NCBI GenBank assembly: GCA_041984885.1
Contig: JBHIXH010000006.1
Coordinates: 4,968 to 68,967 of the forward strand
Reading direction: 5' to 3'
Length of the DNA: 64,000 bases
From: Gammaproteobacteria bacterium
Lineage (GTDB): Bacteria; Pseudomonadota; Gammaproteobacteria; Eutrophobiales; Eutrophobiaceae
Position numbers and translations under genes: made by a program. Below, in pieces: positions 23,289 through 58,190 of this stretch. A model generated the notes under the pieces. That model did no database searches. It was not told where the DNA came from and saw nothing but the letters and a program-made list of their open reading frames with translations. The number at the start of each line of letters is the position of its first letter. The stretch's first letter is position 1.

Positions 23289-24413
23289 ATGAGTTTTAAA
23301 TCAATATTTTTACATGGAATTATTTTCACGGCTATATGTTTCACTGGTTGCCAGGGCCCAACAACTAAAACTATTAAACCCAATGATGCTTCAGTCGAAT
23401 TAGAAGCGGCTAAACAGCGAGAAATAGCTCTACAAGAAGCACTTCATAGTCATATTAGACTTAATCGGGTCGGTTTCCCAATTCTTAAAGCCGGACTGCC
23501 TCTTTGTAAAGATCGAGTAACTACTTCAAACATCGGTATTGCAATCTCTAATAAATATGAGTTTGATGATGAATATAGAGATACCGCTATGTTGATGTTT
23601 GATCTAGGGGAACCTTTAAAACTTATTCATGTATATAAAAATTCTCCGGCGGAGGCCGCAGGTCTAAAAAAAGGTGATGTAATTATATCTCTCAATGGAG
23701 AAGATTCGCCCACTGGAAATAATGCAAGGAAAAAATTTATAAAATCTATAAGAGATGAATCTAAAGAAAATTCGAATTTATCTTTTAAAGTTAGAAGAGG
23801 TCAGGAGGATCGAATTATCAGTGTGGCAACCATAGAAACGTGTGACTATCCATTAAGTGTTTCAGGAGACACTTCAGTAAATGCGTATGCAGATGGCAAT
23901 CAAATAGTCTTCCATCAAGGCATGATGGATTTTGCCAAAGATGATAATGAGCTTGCCTTGGTCATCGGACATGAACTGGCACATAACTCAATGAGACATA
24001 TAGATGCCAAACGGATTAATGCTCTTGGCGGGTTTTTAGTTGATTTATTGTTTGCTGCATTAGGAGCTAATACGCAAGGTGCATTTACTAAAATGGCAGC
24101 ACAGGCATATAGCCAAGAATTTGAGGCGGAAGCAGATTATGTCGGTCTTTATATAAATGAGCTGGCAGGATACGATATTTCGGATGCGCAATATTTTTGG
24201 CGGAGAATGGGTGTCAAACATCCTGGTGCTATAGATAAAAATCACGCTGCCTCACACCCATCCACTCCCGAGAGATTTGTTGCAATTGAAGAGTCTGTTA
24301 AGGAGATTGAAGCGAAAAAGATAGCTGGCGAAGTTTTAATGCCAAATATAGATGATGAAGTGGTAGCTCAAAGAGATCCACCTCCCGAGGCTGTCGAGTT
24401 AGGGTTTAAGTAA
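23289..24413 (+). CDS. M48-family zinc metallopeptidase lipoprotein with PDZ-like domain (AT-rich gene)
   Basis: Lipobox FTGC, PDZ-like GLKKGDVIISLNG, and HELAHNSMRH (HExxH). Markedly lower GC than its neighbours. Confidence 0.7.
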   Translation: MSFKSIFLHGIIFTAICFTGCQGPTTKTIKPNDASVELEAAKQREIALQEALHSHIRLNRVGFPILKAGLPLCKDRVTTSNIGIAISNKYEFDDEYRDTAMLMFDLGEPLKLIHVYKNSPAEAAGLKKGDVIISLNGEDSPTGNNARKKFIKSIRDESKENSNLSFKVRRGQEDRIISVATIETCDYPLSVSGDTSVNAYADGNQIVFHQGMMDFAKDDNELALVIGHELAHNSMRHIDAKRINALGGFLVDLLFAALGANTQGAFTKMAAQAYSQEFEAEADYVGLYINELAGYDISDAQYFWRRMGVKHPGAIDKNHAASHPSTPERFVAIEESVKEIEAKKIAGEVLMPNIDDEVVAQRDPPPEAVELGFK

Positions 24414-38745: not shown

Positions 38746-39168
38746 TTACGATTTTAGTTCAGACTCGAGTTGCTTGATCCGGGCCAGCGCCTGATCGCGG
38801 GATTTCGCGGCATCGGTCAGCTCGGCCAGCGCCTCAAATGCGGATGACTCGGCATGCTCGGCTCGCTCGATCAAGGCCTCCCGTTGTTTACTCAAATTCA
38901 ACTCCTGCCGACTTGGCCCGAACAGCTTTCTCAGCCAGTCACGCAGCGCCGGCTGGTGGGAATGTATGATCGACTCCAGTTCTTTCTCGTATTCGTTGTC
39001 GGCTTCACCGGAGCGGGCAAGAAATGCGACCAGTTCACTGCGCAACTGACTGATCTGCTCGGAATCAAAATGGTCCTGTAACTGGTACAGCTCGACCAGC
39101 GACAACAGGCTTTTGATCAAGCGTGCTTTTTTGTATCCGTCAGCAGTGTCCGGAATGGTCAGGGACAT
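38746..39168 (-). CDS. Hypothetical acidic coiled-coil protein
   Basis: 140-aa ORF lying between miaB and the ModE-like regulator. Confidence 0.45.
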   Translation of the reverse strand: MSLTIPDTADGYKKARLIKSLLSLVELYQLQDHFDSEQISQLRSELVAFLARSGEADNEYEKELESIIHSHQPALRDWLRKLFGPSRQELNLSKQREALIERAEHAESSAFEALAELTDAAKSRDQALARIKQLESELKS

Positions 39169-39201: not shown

Positions 39202-40272
39202 TTAAGCGAAAAGTCGCTGCAACGGCACCGTTTTACCGGACTGACTGCAATCATAACCGGCTATCCTTGCCGAATATTTCTGAAATTCAACCGAGTTCAA
39301 TTGCTCGATCAGTTGTTTGCGGAATGGTTTATTCAGTTGCGGCGCCAGTGCCAGGCAGTATTGTTCCCGCACCAGCGGGATAAATCCAAGTTTAAACCTG
39401 TCCGCTGCGGCTTTCAGTCCGATACCGACATCGGCCGCGCCACTGGCCACCATCGCGGCCACTGCCAGGTGGGTATATTCCTCATTCACATAACCATTGA
39501 TGTCCTGACTCCTGATACTTTCCTGTTGCAAAAGCGAATCCAGGAGTATGCGCGTGCCGGATTCCTGTTGTCGGTTGATAAAACGCACCGAGCGCCGCGT
39601 TAAATTGGCAAGCCGGTGAATCTTTTTCGGATTGCCTTTCTGCACGATCAACCCCTGTTCGCGGATTGCCAGCTTGATACAACTGGCGTGGGCAAGGCGC
39701 AGATAGTGATGAAACTGCTCCAGTTCTGCACCGGCGTATTTCTCCACAGGAAAATGAAAACCGGCGACATCACACTCGTGGTTGGCCAGCGCGCGCAGAT
39801 TATTCAGGCTGCCTCGAACCTGCACGCTAAATGCTGTTTTACTAATCTCGCGTACTCGCTTGAGCAGCTGTTCCAGCAGCAGGTCATGACTGATGAAGAC
39901 ACGCAGTGTGGCATTCGCGGCATGCTGTTGCAGGTGCTGCAGGCTGGAATTGATGCGCGAGGAATGCTCTTCCAGCAGGGACGCCAGTTGCGTGCGAACC
40001 TCTGTATCTTCAATTATCAGGGTCTGACTGAATTCACTCAGGCTCGCTCCCTGTTTTCGTCCCCGGTCAGCCTGTACCAGGGGTTGCTGAAAGTGGTGTT
40101 CCCATTCGCGTAGCAAGCCCCAGGCAAAGCGATACGACACGCCAATGGATTTTGCGGCCTGGCGTATCGAACCGGTTGAATGAATTTCACTTAATAATGC
40201 AAGCAAACGGGCGTCAATCGCCAACTTGTCGTTGCCCTCGAAACGCCAATGCAGATCCAGCCTAATATGCAT
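39202..40272 (-). CDS. ModE-like winged-HTH regulator fused to periplasmic-binding-protein-like (oxyanion-binding) domain
   Basis: N-terminal domain resembles the ModE HTH (SIRQAAKSIGVSYRFAWGLL). The C-terminal roughly 230 aa are PBP-like. Divergent from the porin and tupABC. Confidence 0.6.
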   Translation of the reverse strand: MHIRLDLHWRFEGNDKLAIDARLLALLSEIHSTGSIRQAAKSIGVSYRFAWGLLREWEHHFQQPLVQADRGRKQGASLSEFSQTLIIEDTEVRTQLASLLEEHSSRINSSLQHLQQHAANATLRVFISHDLLLEQLLKRVREISKTAFSVQVRGSLNNLRALANHECDVAGFHFPVEKYAGAELEQFHHYLRLAHASCIKLAIREQGLIVQKGNPKKIHRLANLTRRSVRFINRQQESGTRILLDSLLQQESIRSQDINGYVNEEYTHLAVAAMVASGAADVGIGLKAAADRFKLGFIPLVREQYCLALAPQLNKPFRKQLIEQLNSVEFQKYSARIAGYDCSQSGKTVPLQRLFA

Positions 40273-40361
40273 AGATAAACATATTACAGTTTATAAATAG
40301 ATGTATAAAATAATAAAAATAATAATAACAGGCAAAACTTTGCATATTAAGGGGTGAAAAA

Positions 40362-41699
40362 ATGAAATATATATATCGTATTCTTTTCTGTCTGTGTCTG
40401 GCTCCGGTGGCGACTGCGGCCGAGAATCAGGCCTTGATGCAGTTACTGAAGGCGCTACATGAAAACGGCACGATTGATGAGCAAACCTATGAACTGGTGA
40501 CGCGCGTCGCCGACCAGGAATCGCTGGCACAACAGCAGCAGGTGAAGCAGGTAGCGAAAACCGAGTCAGAGCGTACGGCCAGGGAAACCGTCAAACAGGA
40601 AATCAGCCAGAACGTCAGTTTGAATAAAAATACCGGGCCGTCGGTACGACTCGGTGGTCGTATCCAGGTTGATGCGGCTGCGTATGACGGTGATGTCAGC
40701 AGTCATAATGATGGTACCGAGATACGCCGGGCACGATTGTTTGCCAGTGGCAGCCTGACCGATAACTGGAAGTACAAATTACAATACGATTTTACCAGTA
40801 CCGGCAACAGCGGCATTCAGGATGCCTATCTCGATTACGCCGGCCTTGACTGGTTTGACATCCGCCTCGGCCATTTTAAAGAGCCGTTCAGTTTGCAGAA
40901 CATGACCAGCTCCAAGTACATCACGTTCATGGAACGTGGCATGCCGCATGTTTTTGCCGAGGGACGCAACCTTGGTCTGCAGTTACACACGGGCGGAGAT
41001 AACTGGAATCTTTACGGCGGGGTATTTGGTGATGGCCGGGATGGCGCGGCCAGCGATAACGATGAAGGAATGGGCGTGTCCGGTCGTGCTACCTGGGCCC
41101 CATTAAAGTCAGAGCAGCAGTTGGTACACCTGGGGTTATCTGCGTCCTGGCGTGAAACCGGATCTGTCGACACCTTACGTTTTCGTGAACGACCGGAGTC
41201 CCATGTCACCGATACCCGGCTGGTGGACACCGGTACGTTTGATGCGGATTCATTCACACGTTATGTCGCCGAAGCAGCCTGGGTCTATGGACCGTTCAAC
41301 CTGCAGGGGGAGTATTACCACACTGTTGTTGATCGTGAAATCACGGGTAATTCAGATCTGGATTTTAACGGTTTTTATCTGGAAGGCGGCTGGTTTATTA
41401 CCGGCGAATCGATGAACTACAAACAGTCGGGAAGTTTCGGTCGTGTTAAACCGAATGCCTATGTCGGACAGGGTGGCATCGGTGCCTGGCAGTTGGCAAC
41501 GCGTTTCAGCAATCTGGATCTGACCGACGAGGATATCACCGGTGGCGAGATTGACAGCTTCACCGTTGGCCTTAACTGGTATGCGACACCGGATATCCGT
41601 TTCACTGCCAACTATATCAACGTGCTGGAAGTCGATGGCGGCGGGGCGGATGGTGATGAACCGAATGTGTTCCAGGTGCGAGCCCAGGTGGAATTCTGA
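40362..41699 (+). CDS. Anion-selective porin, OprO/OprP (porin_O_P) family
   Basis: Signal peptide and beta-barrel signature similar to Pseudomonas OprP (RLGGRIQVDAAAYDGD..., C-terminal VRAQVEF). Confidence 0.75.
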   Translation: MKYIYRILFCLCLAPVATAAENQALMQLLKALHENGTIDEQTYELVTRVADQESLAQQQQVKQVAKTESERTARETVKQEISQNVSLNKNTGPSVRLGGRIQVDAAAYDGDVSSHNDGTEIRRARLFASGSLTDNWKYKLQYDFTSTGNSGIQDAYLDYAGLDWFDIRLGHFKEPFSLQNMTSSKYITFMERGMPHVFAEGRNLGLQLHTGGDNWNLYGGVFGDGRDGAASDNDEGMGVSGRATWAPLKSEQQLVHLGLSASWRETGSVDTLRFRERPESHVTDTRLVDTGTFDADSFTRYVAEAAWVYGPFNLQGEYYHTVVDREITGNSDLDFNGFYLEGGWFITGESMNYKQSGSFGRVKPNAYVGQGGIGAWQLATRFSNLDLTDEDITGGEIDSFTVGLNWYATPDIRFTANYINVLEVDGGGADGDEPNVFQVRAQVEF

Positions 41700-41732
41700 T
41701 AAGTCATTTTAAAACGAACAGGAGCGGTAAAC

Positions 41733-42536
41733 ATGCGGTATAGAAATTTTGTAATTTTATTTTCACTACTGTTTTTGACAGTGAACGTACAGGCAGGTGA
41801 TCGTTTGCGTATGGCAACAACGACGAGTACGGATAATTCCGGTTTGTTGTCCGTCTTGCACCCACCGTTTGAACAGCAACAGGACATCAGGATCGATGTG
41901 ATCGCGGTCGGTACCGGCAAGGCATTACGACTGGGGCAGCAGGGCGATGTGGATATTGTGTTTGTGCATGCACCTGCAGCCGAACAGAAATTTGTTGATT
42001 CCGGTTATGGTGTCGAACGGTTGCCGGTCATGCATAATGATTTCGTCATCATCGGACCAGAAGATGATCCGGCAGGTATGTCCGGCGTGAATGACGCAGG
42101 CCAGGCATTAAAGAAAATGGCCGAGTCGCAGCAAGTCTTTATTTCACGTGGTGATGATTCCGGTACGCATAAAAAGGAAATGGCACTCTGGCAGTCAGCC
42201 GGCATGCAGCCGGGTGGTGACTGGTACCTGGCGGTGGGTCAGGGTATGGGGGCGGTGTTGAAAATAGCAGACGACAAACAGGCATACACGCTGACCGATC
42301 GCGGTACTTTTCTCGCTTACAAGGACAAGATAAGTCTGAAAGTCCTGATCGAGGGTGATGCAGCGTTATTCAATCCATACCACATAATTATGGTTAACCC
42401 GGATAAACATTCACATGTTAATTCTGCAGCCGCACAGGCTTATATCGAGTTTATCCGTAGCGAACAGGGCCAGGCGATCATTCGCGATTACAGGGTCAAC
42501 GGTGAGCAATTGTTTCATCCGGACGTGATTGAATGA
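41733..42536 (+). CDS. tupA: Tungstate ABC transporter substrate-binding protein TupA
   Basis: Signal peptide and the TupA-diagnostic TTTST motif (RMATTTSTDNSGLL). Confidence 0.8.
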   Translation: MRYRNFVILFSLLFLTVNVQAGDRLRMATTTSTDNSGLLSVLHPPFEQQQDIRIDVIAVGTGKALRLGQQGDVDIVFVHAPAAEQKFVDSGYGVERLPVMHNDFVIIGPEDDPAGMSGVNDAGQALKKMAESQQVFISRGDDSGTHKKEMALWQSAGMQPGGDWYLAVGQGMGAVLKIADDKQAYTLTDRGTFLAYKDKISLKVLIEGDAALFNPYHIIMVNPDKHSHVNSAAAQAYIEFIRSEQGQAIIRDYRVNGEQLFHPDVIE

Positions 42537-42570
42537 GTTTGTCTAAATCAATCAATGCTAATATTGGCGC

Positions 42571-43263
42571 GTGGATTATTTTCTCTACGCGCTGACCAGC
42601 GCGTTTCAACTTATCTTCGGTCTTGATAGTGAAGTCTTTGTTATCGCATCGACTTCACTATTGATATCGACTATCGCAACCTTGCTGGCTGCGGGAGTCT
42701 CGATCCCGGCCGGTATTTTCCTGTCTTTGAACGAGTTTCGTGGCAAGCGATTACTGCTGAACATACTGAATACTTTAATGGCGTTACCCACTGTTGTCGT
42801 CGGTTTGTTCCTGTATGGCCTGTTGACGCGACAGGGCCCGGCAGGCGATCTGGGGCTGTTATACACACCGGCGGCCATGGTGCTCGGCCAGTTCATCCTG
42901 ATTACGCCCATCATTACGAATCTGACGCAATCAACGGTTTCTTCTGCTGATCCGCGTTTACTGCAGACATGCCTGTCACTGGGTGCGAATCGATGGCAAC
43001 AGCTGACGGTGTTCACAGTTGAACTTCGACTCGGACTGATGGCAGCGGTCGTTGCCGGTTTCGGGCGGGCGATTGGCGAGGTTGGTGTGGCGATGATGCT
43101 CGGTGGCAACATTGAAGGTTATACACGAACGATGACAACAGCGATCGCTCTGGAAACCAGCAAAGGTGAATTTGAACTGGCGTTGGCACTGGGGATATTA
43201 CTGCTGGTTGTTGCGTTTATCGTCAATGGTCTGCTATTTCGATTGCAGAGGCGACCGACGTGA
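42571..43263 (+). CDS. tupB: Tungstate ABC transporter permease TupB
   Basis: Five to six transmembrane helices and the ABC permease EAA-like region. Confidence 0.8.
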   Translation: MDYFLYALTSAFQLIFGLDSEVFVIASTSLLISTIATLLAAGVSIPAGIFLSLNEFRGKRLLLNILNTLMALPTVVVGLFLYGLLTRQGPAGDLGLLYTPAAMVLGQFILITPIITNLTQSTVSSADPRLLQTCLSLGANRWQQLTVFTVELRLGLMAAVVAGFGRAIGEVGVAMMLGGNIEGYTRTMTTAIALETSKGEFELALALGILLLVVAFIVNGLLFRLQRRPT

Positions 43264-44255
43264 CACAACTTTATTCAGTCAAACAACTGTCGTTTGCGTA
43301 TGAGAGAGAAAATATTCTTGACGTTAACGAATTTGAAATCAGCAGCAACAGCGTCACGGCGATTACCGGGGCGAATGGATCCGGCAAGACAACCCTGTTA
43401 AATCTGTTTGCCTTACTCCGGCTGCCCACCAGTGGCAGCCTGTCATTCCGGTCACAAGTGGTCACGAAACAGAACCTGACAGCATTACGCCAGGATATCG
43501 GTTATGTGCAGCAGAAGCCCTACCTGCTGAACCGTAGCGTCTATGAAAATGTAGAACTTGGTCTGAAGTTCAGGGGTATACCTGCCAGCGAGCGAGCACA
43601 AACCGTACGGGCTATTCTGCAAAAGACGGACATAATGCAGCTGGCCGATCGTCATGCCCACACACTGTCCGGCGGCGAATCGCAGAAGGTGGCAATTGCC
43701 CGTGCCCTGGTCCTGCAGCCTTCAGTATTGATCCTTGACGAACCGTTTTCTCATCTTGATCGCAGGGCAGTGCAGTTTTTTGAAAAATTCATTCACTCGT
43801 TACGACATAGTATTGGTGTAACGATAATATTCTCCAGTCACGATCCGATCGCGGCACAGCTGTTGTCGGATAATGTTTATAGCGTTGTTCACGGACGACT
43901 CATAGCCAGTACGATGACAAATCTGTTTTTCGGTCATGTCGATGCCAATAATCGATTATTCAAAACAGAAAAAATACAGATTCACATTCCGGAGAATGCA
44001 GGGGTCGGATCACATTTAACGATTGACCCGAATCACCTCGTCCTCTCCCGCAACAAGCTGGATTCGAGTATGCGCAATCAATTTCAGGGCAGCGTAATCG
44101 CGGTAAACCAGCAGCGTTCACAAATTCGATTAACCATCAATGCCGGTGAGAAGTTTGATGTCCTGATCACCGCTGATGCAATGCAGGATATGGATATCCG
44201 CTTCGGGGATCCCGTCTGGATCAGCTTCAAATCTTCCGCTGTCCGGGTTTTCTAG
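43260..44255 (+). CDS. tupC: Tungstate ABC transporter ATPase TupC with C-terminal TOBE/Mop domain
   Basis: Walker A GANGSGKTT, signature LSGGESQK, and a C-terminal TOBE-like beta domain. Confidence 0.8.
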   Translation: MTQLYSVKQLSFAYERENILDVNEFEISSNSVTAITGANGSGKTTLLNLFALLRLPTSGSLSFRSQVVTKQNLTALRQDIGYVQQKPYLLNRSVYENVELGLKFRGIPASERAQTVRAILQKTDIMQLADRHAHTLSGGESQKVAIARALVLQPSVLILDEPFSHLDRRAVQFFEKFIHSLRHSIGVTIIFSSHDPIAAQLLSDNVYSVVHGRLIASTMTNLFFGHVDANNRLFKTEKIQIHIPENAGVGSHLTIDPNHLVLSRNKLDSSMRNQFQGSVIAVNQQRSQIRLTINAGEKFDVLITADAMQDMDIRFGDPVWISFKSSAVRVF

Positions 44256-44340
44256 CCAAACGTGATGTTGTTCATTGCTCTCGGCCGGTCACATTTTTAT
44301 AATCCGGTTACCAGAACGCACAACAGACCGAAAAATATTA

Positions 44341-44979
44341 ATGAATATCGACAAGGCGTTACTCGACGAAGCAGAGAGTCTGTACGATCCTCGACTGGCA
44401 TACCATAAATTTGACCATATCAGGATGGTATTCGGCGAGGCGGACAGGATCCTCCAGCGCTGCAAGAAACATAATATCGAGGTGGATGAAAACGTCGTAT
44501 ACCTGGCCCTTTTATTTCACGATGCCGGTTTTATCGAAAACCATGCGCTGAAAGGGTTTGAGTCAAAAGAAGCCTATTCTGCCGATCTGGCCGGTCAGAT
44601 CCTGCCGAAACATAATTACCCCGATGAGACAGTGCGGCAGGTGCAACAGGCAATTATGTGTACCCACTGCGACCATCGATGCCAGTCGAATGAAGACAAG
44701 GTGGTCAAGGCAGCCGATCTTGCCGGATTGGCGGCGGACTTTGACTTTTTTCTGAAGAATACAGTCCGGCTCAGGGCCGAGTACGAGATGTTCAATCAGT
44801 CTGAAATCGAGTGGGAACACTGGAAGCAACTGGCGATAGATCGATTACGGATTTTTATCGAGGACGAAATGGAATTGACCGACGAGGAATTTGATGAAAA
44901 CGGCAATTCGTTATTTAAACTTGCGGTTGCTGAAAACATACAGCGATTACAAGAAGAGCCGGAACCCGACAGGACATAA
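44341..44979 (+). CDS. HD-domain phosphohydrolase (ATG 44341 preferred; ORF extends to TTG/ATG 44275)
   Basis: H...HD motif (HKFDHIRMV...LLFHDAGF). Confidence 0.7.
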   Translation: MNIDKALLDEAESLYDPRLAYHKFDHIRMVFGEADRILQRCKKHNIEVDENVVYLALLFHDAGFIENHALKGFESKEAYSADLAGQILPKHNYPDETVRQVQQAIMCTHCDHRCQSNEDKVVKAADLAGLAADFDFFLKNTVRLRAEYEMFNQSEIEWEHWKQLAIDRLRIFIEDEMELTDEEFDENGNSLFKLAVAENIQRLQEEPEPDRT

Positions 44980-44982
44980 TTA

Positions 44983-45810
44983 ATGATGGATCAGGAGCTG
45001 GAATCCGCACAACGGGCTGTCGATATTGCCAGCGAACTGGCAGTGAAATACGGATTTCAGTTCATCGCTGCGATCATCATATTGCTAGTCGGCTGGCAGA
45101 TAGCCAAATGGGTGGCGAAATTTGTCCTCAGACTGTGTGACAAGGCGAAGCTTGATATTACCCTGTCAAAATTCTTTGCCGGCGTTGCCAAGATCCTTGT
45201 GCTTGTCTTTGTCGTCATCATCGCACTGGGAAAATTCGGCATTACCATTGCACCATTTATCGCCGCACTCGGTGCGGTTGCCTTTGGTGGAACGCTGGCC
45301 CTGCAGGGCCTGTTATCGAATTATGCGGCCGGGCTCACGATTATCCTGACACGGCCGTTTGTTGTTAACGACACGATTAAGATACAGGGTGTGATTGGTG
45401 TCGTTGACGAGATTCGACTTGGTTACACCATGTTAAGCACGGAAGACGGTGAGCACGTGCTGGTTCCAAACAAGCAGATCGTCGGTGAGATCCTGCACAA
45501 TTCACATGAAAACATGATCGTTGAGTCGGTCGTTGGTATTGATTACAACGATGAGCCGGAGCCGGCTATACAGATCATCCGCGAGGTGCTGCAGGCGAAT
45601 GATAAGGTCAGTCATGATCCCGCACCGCAAGTCGGGGTACAGGCGTTCGGCGATTCATCAATTGATATCGGTTACCGTTACTGGGTACCGACAAAAGCCT
45701 ATTTTCAGACGCAATATCAGGTAAACGGCGAGGTGTATGCCCGGCTGATGGCAGCGAATATCACGATTCCCTATCCAAAGCGCGATGTGCAAATGACCCG
45801 GGCGGAATAA
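44983..45810 (+). CDS. mscS: Small-conductance mechanosensitive channel
   Basis: Three transmembrane helices plus the MscS beta-domain. Confidence 0.85.
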   Translation: MMDQELESAQRAVDIASELAVKYGFQFIAAIIILLVGWQIAKWVAKFVLRLCDKAKLDITLSKFFAGVAKILVLVFVVIIALGKFGITIAPFIAALGAVAFGGTLALQGLLSNYAAGLTIILTRPFVVNDTIKIQGVIGVVDEIRLGYTMLSTEDGEHVLVPNKQIVGEILHNSHENMIVESVVGIDYNDEPEPAIQIIREVLQANDKVSHDPAPQVGVQAFGDSSIDIGYRYWVPTKAYFQTQYQVNGEVYARLMAANITIPYPKRDVQMTRAE

Positions 45811-58113: not shown

Positions 58114-58190
58114 TGGTGGCTATGGGTGGACTTGAACCACCGACATCAGCATTATGAATGCTGCGCTCTAACCGACTGAGCTACATAGCC
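58114..58190 (-). tRNA. tRNA-Met (anticodon CAT, elongator type)
   Basis: The reverse complement folds as a canonical cloverleaf (GGCTATG acceptor, GCTC/GAGC D-stem, CAGCA/TGCTG anticodon stem, loop TTCATAA, GGTGG/CCACC T-stem, CCA end). Closest to E. coli elongator tRNA-Met. Confidence 0.9.

Follow-up and report, generated by a model that had tools for sequence, protein, structure and literature searches.

Organization of the locus

The present analysis concerns a cluster of genes at positions 39202-44979 of a 64-kb window (the window being the whole stretch of DNA that was analyzed), in which a regulator is encoded divergently from an outer membrane porin, the porin gene being followed by tupA, tupB, and tupC, encoding a tungstate/molybdate-type ATP-binding cassette (ABC) transporter, and by a gene for an HD-domain protein (Table 1). 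The six genes lie where an original prediction for this DNA had placed them. From the porin gene to the HD gene the intergenic gaps measure 33, 34, -4, and 19 nt; because these gaps are short, and a scan for terminator-like sites places none within them, the porin gene and tupABC are likely co-transcribed.

Table 1. Genes and regulatory sites at the locus, with positions in the window.
Feature	Position	Strand	Remarks
Regulator, 356 amino acids	39202..40272	-	PF12727, ModE-type winged helix; without signal peptide
Operator site 1, ATATGCATAGATAAACATAT, perfect ATATG-N10-CATAT	40265..40284		Over regulator start codon
TTTATA-N8-TATAAA palindrome	40290..40309		AT-rich; overlaps predicted -10 element TAAAAT of porin promoter
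Candidate operator site 2, ACAGGCAAAACTTTGCATAT	40328..40347		2 mismatches, right half good; putative
OprO/P-family outer membrane porin, 445 amino acids	40362..41699	+	PF07396
TupA, periplasmic tungstate/molybdate-binding protein, 267 amino acids, signal peptide	41733..42536	+	NCBIfam TupA
TupB, ABC permease	42571..43263	+	NCBIfam ABC_perm1 234 bits, TupB 200 bits
TupC, ABC ATPase with C-terminal TOBE domain (residues 269-329)	43260..44255	+	Pfam, NCBIfam
HD-domain protein; likely true start ATG 44341	44275..44979	+	Pfam HD 27 bits, weak

The TupABC transporter

Among NCBIfam models, the TupA profile provides the best match to the periplasmic binding protein (246 bits, E 4e-73), the modA profile reaching only 18 bits (E 2e-3), and in the PDB the protein matches 3lr1, a tungstate-binding protein of Geobacter to which it is 55% identical (E 3e-82), as well as the characterized Desulfovibrio alaskensis TupA 5my5 (E 4e-66). 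The protein carries the motifs ATTTSTDNSG (containing TTTST), GTGKA, SRGDDSGTH (containing RGDDSGTH), and DRGT, all of them conserved among relatives, and the TTTS and RGDxSGT signatures are invariant or nearly so in an alignment of TupA from relatives. Judged by these profile and motif matches, the protein is a TupA-type binder and not a ModA, WtpA, or phosphonate binder; the TupA identity proposed earlier thus stands, as the NCBIfam and PDB comparisons do not group the protein with ModA or with phosphonate binders. The same proposal had treated TTTST as a mark of tungsten selectivity. The motif is indeed present, but as a signature of the TupA family as a whole it is no proof of a preference for tungstate over molybdate. 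For TupC, Pfam identifies ABC_tran and TOBE domains, and the best NCBIfam matches are WtpC and TupC.

A variant of the transporter is encoded in several related loci, in which porin and tupA genes are followed by a gene for a protein of ~510 amino acids (L083 4317-5852 and L089 9206-10738; also L084, L090, L092, and L103). Its N-terminal half is a second TupA-like binder (residues 29-245, Pfam PBP_like_2), to which a presumed permease is fused, and the next gene encodes a TupC of 217 amino acids without a TOBE domain.

An OprP-like porin encoded with TupA

The porin belongs to Pfam family PF07396, Porin_O_P (E 1.4e-76, 259 bits), and by sequence it matches OprP (2o4v, E 2e-31) and also OprO in the PDB. 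Behind the signal peptide, ~70 residues form a helical extension at the N-terminus, and the beta-barrel begins at about residue 94. In the AlphaFold2 (AF2) model the predicted local distance difference test (pLDDT) score of the barrel is mostly 80-90, the constriction loop being of low confidence, and a Foldseek comparison aligns the model with OprP 2o4v (template modeling score 0.70/0.76, E 3e-24), the next family following at 1e-11; the model is thus far closer to OprP and OprO than to general porins. These findings bear out the earlier claim that a porin of the OprO/P family is encoded directly upstream of tupABC. The N-terminal extension (residues ~22-93, window 40425-40640) is itself conserved, with the pattern NQALMxLLKALxENGTI..., and is not found in OprP; the model is of low confidence there.

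Alignment with OprP places R34, R59, R60, R133, and S124 of that protein at R100, R122, R123, R192, and S183 of the window porin, residues that are conserved across 64 relatives. By comparison, all four positions associated with OprP/OprO selectivity are changed: Y/F62 to R125, D94 to Q153 (a column made less certain by a one-residue gap near OprP position 94), Y/D114 to K173, and K121 to N180. None of the 64 aligned relatives is acidic in the D94 column. The alignment is ambiguous over the 218-226 segment. A residue signature dividing tupA-linked from other porins was sought and is partial only, with H171 and N180 enriched and the D94 position varying.

Gene context was assessed in 80 loci obtained by a porin scan of metagenome contigs, many of the relatives coming from marine metagenomes. 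In a neighbor-joining tree the window porin falls in a clade of 29 distinct sequences, and tupA lies directly downstream in 27 of the 27 members that could be assessed, the other two stopping at a contig edge. The divergent regulator is present in nearly all loci of this clade, and the gap between porin and tupA has a median of 33 nt. A second clade is mostly linked to tupA, and a third is found without tupA and without the regulator, one of its members adjoining a PhoU_div gene. Among the closest relatives, the whole arrangement of the window is kept in L082 and L097, and in L081, a Thiotrichales metagenome-assembled genome whose regulator is 57% identical, the regulator faces tupABC with no porin; the porin can therefore be gained or lost among the closest relatives. 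In L117 (6339-6869), a member of the second clade, and also in L118, moaC, a gene of molybdopterin synthesis, is located directly upstream of the porin-tupA pair.

A search of 40273-40361 allowing up to 3 mismatches finds no Pho box. Together with the unbroken tupA linkage of the assessable clade members, this agrees with the earlier view that the porin is not a generic phosphate porin under Pho-box control. A different situation is seen in Methylophaga (L003, L007), where the regulator faces a porin without tupA, and the region contains the Pho-box-like sequence TTGTAATAAAACTGTCAT (2 mismatches) and lacks ATATG-N10-CATAT, the palindrome described below; the porin of these loci may be phosphate-regulated.

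A regulator with a ModE-type winged helix and a binding-protein-like sensor

The divergently encoded regulator had been described as a ModE-type helix-turn-helix fused to a periplasmic binding protein (PBP)-like domain that would act in the cytoplasm, and the analysis bears out that architecture. Pfam assigns residues 144-324 to PF12727, PBP_like (189 bits), a domain also present in archaeal MoeA fusions. The N-terminus matches the NCBIfam ModE repressor domain TIGR00637 (55 bits, E 7e-15; subfamily cut-off 98.5) as well as the ModE DNA-binding domains 2ijl and 1b9m in the PDB (E ~1e-7), and Pfam HTH_1 falls just under its cut-off (26.3 against 26.6). The Pfam scan gives no match to a LysR_substrate domain and finds no TOBE/Mop domain, and in place of HTH_17 it shows only HTH_1 and ModE-type matches. 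The resulting layout consists of a winged helix (~19-96), a linker helix of 40 residues (80-119), and the PF12727 sensor (~120-350). Consistent with this layout, in the AF2 model (pLDDT 87.5) the linker helix connects a winged helix to an alpha/beta domain with two lobes, and the top 48 Foldseek matches to it are full-length LysR-type regulators. A profile alignment of the sensor with TupA pairs GSLxxLR with GTGkALR and NRQxxSGTR with SRGDDSGTH (E 2e-4), a correspondence between the sensor and the anion loops of TupA that is weak but consistent.

Species-representative genomes contain at least 594 loci of the regulator family. Within the best 80 genome loci, ~30 adjoin tupA or tupB, 4 of these with a porin gene in between. 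When regulators with a full-length match are considered, 36 are divergent to a porin gene, 21 to tupABC or tupBCA, and 33 to fdsGBA, encoding an NAD-linked molybdenum- or tungsten-dependent formate dehydrogenase whose identity was checked by Pfam in Stutzerimonas. Plasmid-borne members of the family adjoin FdhF/FdhD genes or genes for synthesis of the molybdenum cofactor (Moco).

A neighbor-joining tree of the regulators separates an fds-linked clade from a tup/porin-linked clade, the window regulator being located in the latter. Because Burkholderiales occur in both, the topology identifies the tup/porin-linked and fds-linked regulators as paralogs forming two deep clades. The two differ at positions near the predicted loops: G154 is present in 100% of the tup clade and 15% of the fds clade; at position 279 the tup clade has Ala and the fds clade Met (93%), and at position 131 the former has Leu and the latter Phe. 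The bulkier residues of the fds clade would fit a smaller ligand there. In two loci, from Herbaspirillum (L009 6144-7787) and Oxalobacter (L024 6118-7785), the regulator instead faces a major facilitator superfamily (MFS) transporter of 547-555 amino acids, followed by fdsG and fdsB in Herbaspirillum and by a class I aminoacyl-tRNA synthetase gene in Oxalobacter. These MFS-facing regulators may mark a formate- or oxalate-related regulon.

A conserved operator

Two palindromes had been noted between the regulator and porin genes, and both are present, but only ATATG-N10-CATAT is conserved, being common to homologous intergenic regions. When a single mismatch is allowed and the 230 nt preceding the regulator are considered, this motif occurs in 94 of 114 related loci, at the same offset as in the window, compared with ~1.5 expected from shuffled sequences; a position weight table was compiled, and the motif is found in all three contexts, that is, whether the regulator faces a porin, tup, or fds gene. 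The site at 40265-40284 is the sole perfect copy in the 64 kb, and the copies with one mismatch at window positions 24091, 51420, 53607, and 62002 were set aside as being at chance level. Site 1 overlaps the start of the regulator gene, where ATGCATAT, corresponding to a conserved Met-His-Ile, is itself a half-site. In relatives, a second site is found either 65-67 or 76-78 bp from the first, distances one helical turn apart, and such phased spacing suggests a looped dimer of dimers. The candidate second site in the window lies 63 bp from site 1, with 14 nt between its end and the porin ATG. From its conservation and placement, ATATG-N10-CATAT is predicted to be the conserved operator of the regulator.

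The other palindrome, TTTATA-N8-TATAAA, was rejected as an operator since, of 48 homologous intergenic regions, just 1 contains it. A promoter-like site is predicted for the porin at 40283-40311, and the palindrome is probably just AT-rich promoter sequence. Neither a ModE box of the E. coli type nor any Rfam family, the Moco riboswitch included, was detected near the operon.

The definition of an operator permits comparison with FdsR of Cupriavidus necator, a LysR-type, formate-responsive dual regulator of the fds operon that is encoded divergently from fdsG and that, together with its promoter, gives 32-fold induction by formate in E. coli. The primer marking the fdsR end of a promoter-only construct, EH272_r, begins ATGTAGAAAATAGCTTAT (PMC7057948 supplement). 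Presuming that the primer begins right behind the start codon of fdsR, addition of the complement of that codon (CAT) yields cATATGTAGAAAATAGCTTAT, a site 1 of the family that has one mismatch, lies at the usual offset, and is nearly identical to operator sites of Oxalobacteraceae. Because of this match, FdsR probably belongs to the fds-linked clade, a placement drawn from the primer and not from the protein sequence. A homolog search seeded with an fds-linked regulator of Massilia returned only Oxalobacteraceae among the matches listed. Membership in the family would imply that FdsR, in use as a formate biosensor, has a PF12727-type sensor and not the classical LysR effector domain.

A proposed path for tungstate across both membranes

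Taken together, gene identities, folds, gene order, and the operator make it probable, with appreciable room for doubt, that the locus encodes a regulated high-affinity uptake path for tungstate, possibly molybdate, across both membranes. In the proposed mechanism, the arginine-lined, OprP-like, anion-specific porin would pass the oxyanion through the outer membrane at very low concentration, TupA would bind it in the periplasm, and TupB and TupC would import it, with the TOBE domain of TupC potentially providing feedback inhibition. The LysR-like regulator, probably in the form of a dimer of dimers, would occupy ATATG-N10-CATAT operators, namely a site over its own start codon and a weaker one immediately ahead of the ribosome-binding site of the porin gene. 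If it acts like ModE, the ligand-loaded regulator would repress both itself and porin-tupABC; the action of Campylobacter jejuni ModE on tup (PMC3417520) provides a model for this logic. The substrate of the porin would then be tungstate or molybdate. As for the regulator, we infer a ligand for which tungstate or molybdate has somewhat better than even prospects, formate being a minor candidate and other molecules accounting for the rest.

Several observations weigh against this assignment, and they are best considered along with the alternatives that they favor. At the outer membrane, the constriction loop is poorly defined in the porin model, and the residue at the D94 position is variable even inside the tupA-linked clade. 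It could be proposed that the porin is an ordinary phosphate/polyphosphate porin that lies beside tupABC by chance, given its membership in Porin_O_P, the sister clade without tupA in which one member adjoins PhoU_div, and the Pho-box-like sequence beside the Methylophaga porins. This proposal is very improbable in view of the tupA gene directly downstream in every assessable member of the window clade, operator sites upstream of the porin as first gene of the operon, the absence of a Pho box here, and the alteration of all four selectivity positions. A more serious alternative is that the cargo is molybdate, that the module serves molybdoenzymes, and that "tungstate uptake" is an artefact of TupA-family naming. 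Many of the relatives are from marine metagenomes, and seawater holds vastly more molybdate than tungstate. Molybdate, too, is bound by TupA proteins, with comparable binding of both oxyanions in related proteins (PMC11980592), and the 246 bits of the window TupA are below the NCBIfam equivalog cut-off of 400. Within the 64-kb window no modABC is visible and no molybdo- or tungstoenzyme gene is present, so that the tungstoenzymes implied by the original prediction find no counterpart there. Nevertheless, characterized TupA proteins prefer tungstate (5my5; C. jejuni TupABC, PMC3417520), and it can be reasoned that abundant molybdate would need no porin of its own, a specific channel being better suited to a very scarce substrate; molybdate as the intended cargo is for these reasons considered unlikely, if by no means negligible.

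The remaining points concern control. Site 2 is degenerate in the window, and the strongly conserved residues of the sensor (S128, R234, S238-R241, E265, T267, and H268) are all common to both regulator clades, including the sister clade that adjoins fdsGBA and probably contains the formate-responsive FdsR. These shared residues, the 33 family members divergent to fdsGBA, the family site 1 that ATGTAGAAAATAGCTTAT would form at the end of the C. necator fds promoter, and the strong formate induction conferred by FdsR with that promoter would all fit a regulator that senses formate like FdsR, and not a metal oxyanion, turning on the porin and TupABC to supply a tungsten- or molybdenum-dependent formate dehydrogenase. 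Such a role is, however, doubtful, as the tup/porin-linked and fds-linked regulators are two deep paralogous clades differing beside the predicted binding loops (G154, 279, and 131), and the membership of C. necator FdsR is drawn from a primer; furthermore, the known tup/mod regulators ModE and TaoR respond to metal (PMC3417520, PMC12327845). Regulated uptake of tungstate, or possibly molybdate, remains the preferred reading of the locus.

Neighboring genes

The HD gene that the original prediction listed after tupC is present, but not as a part of the module: homologs follow tupC only in L081, L082, and L097, three closest relatives that also share miaB-ybeZ-ybeY synteny with the window. The HD gene may be co-transcribed with the operon, yet its presence is not a conserved trait of the module. 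An MscS-type channel gene begins 3 nt after the HD gene (window 44275-45810) and is syntenic in close relatives only. An open reading frame for a 140-amino-acid coiled-coil protein without a family match (38746-39168, minus strand), located 33 nt downstream of the regulator, is likewise kept only in L081, L082, and L097. As the HD, MscS, and coiled-coil genes co-occur only in these three loci, all were rejected as module members.

The remaining genes of the window are housekeeping genes, including priA, pilM, pilQ (encoding a secretin), gltBD, hemE, miaB, ybeY, a PhoH-like gene of the ybeZ type, and a gene for a class A penicillin-binding protein with transglycosylase and transpeptidase domains. 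Between 54000 and 58200 the guanine-plus-cytosine content is 0.36-0.42, compared with ~0.50 elsewhere; this stretch adjoins a tRNA gene at 58117-58190 (minus strand) and may be an acquired island.

Significance

TupABC, OprP-type porins, and regulators with PBP-like sensors are each already known, but the widely conserved porin-tupA-regulator module and its operator appear to be undescribed so far, and our literature search found no paper linking tupA or tungstate to an OprO/P porin. Passage of molybdate and tungstate through the outer membrane is usually assumed to occur "presumably via porins" (PMC3417520). The occurrence of TupABC with its own porin suggests a dedicated outer membrane route for trace oxyanions, and a porin clade that is always encoded with tupA and shares its regulator represents a concrete, testable candidate for that passage; a dedicated porin would also explain how a very scarce element is scavenged. 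We would advance only tentatively, with rather less than even confidence, the broader proposal that this large OprP-like clade is the first dedicated outer membrane tungstate/molybdate channel, its gene being co-transcribed with tupA in many Gammaproteobacteria from marine and sediment habitats and controlled via ATATG-N10-CATAT, an operator not defined before, by a LysR-like tungstate sensor paralogous to FdsR. In addition, anion discrimination could be studied in this porin, whose selectivity filter is a naturally occurring variant of that of OprP, and definition of an operator for a very common regulator family would allow tungsten-uptake and formate dehydrogenase regulons to be predicted from sequence.

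Comparison with known systems

The transporter, the porin, and the regulator resemble characterized systems while departing from them in specific ways. The TupABC transporters of Eubacterium acidaminophilum, C. jejuni, and D. alaskensis (3lr1, 5my5) share with the window a TupA carrying TTTS and RGDxSGTH, followed by the TupB permease and the TupC ATPase. The window operon differs in opening with an outer membrane porin, in the TOBE domain of its TupC, and in a TupA that scores under the equivalog cut-off. OprP and OprO, the phosphate and diphosphate porins of Pseudomonas aeruginosa (2o4v, 4rjw), have in common with the window porin the Pfam family, the barrel fold, and the arginine-ladder core. 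In contrast, the window porin is ~25-27% identical to them, has an N-terminal helical extension, lacks a Pho box, and is encoded with tupA under a different regulator.

Three regulators provide points of reference for the control of the operon. With E. coli ModE (1b9m), the window regulator shares a homologous N-terminal winged helix with the SYRxAW recognition helix and the control, predicted here, of an oxyanion ABC importer through an AT-rich palindrome close to the promoter; its sensor, however, has the PF12727 fold in place of the two Mop/TOBE domains of ModE, and its predicted operator is ATATG-N10-CATAT with no E. coli ModE box. TaoR of Desulfovibrio, which responds to tungstate and regulates aldehyde oxidoreductase as well as tup/mod genes (Rajeev et al., 2019, cited in PMC11980592 and PMC12327845), is similar in its PBP-like (PF12727) sensor and in having both tungsten/molybdenum transport and a tungsten/molybdenum enzyme as targets. 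The two differ in their DNA-binding domains, TaoR having HTH_17 (PMC11980592) and the window regulator a ModE/LysR-type winged helix. Finally, FdsR probably shares with the window regulator the protein family, the divergent arrangement, and a LysR-like architecture and, if the primer directly follows the start codon, an operator, ATATGTAGAAAATAGCTTAT, over that codon. The effector of FdsR is formate, whereas the window regulator is a member of the paralogous tup/porin-linked clade, which differs beside the predicted ligand loops.

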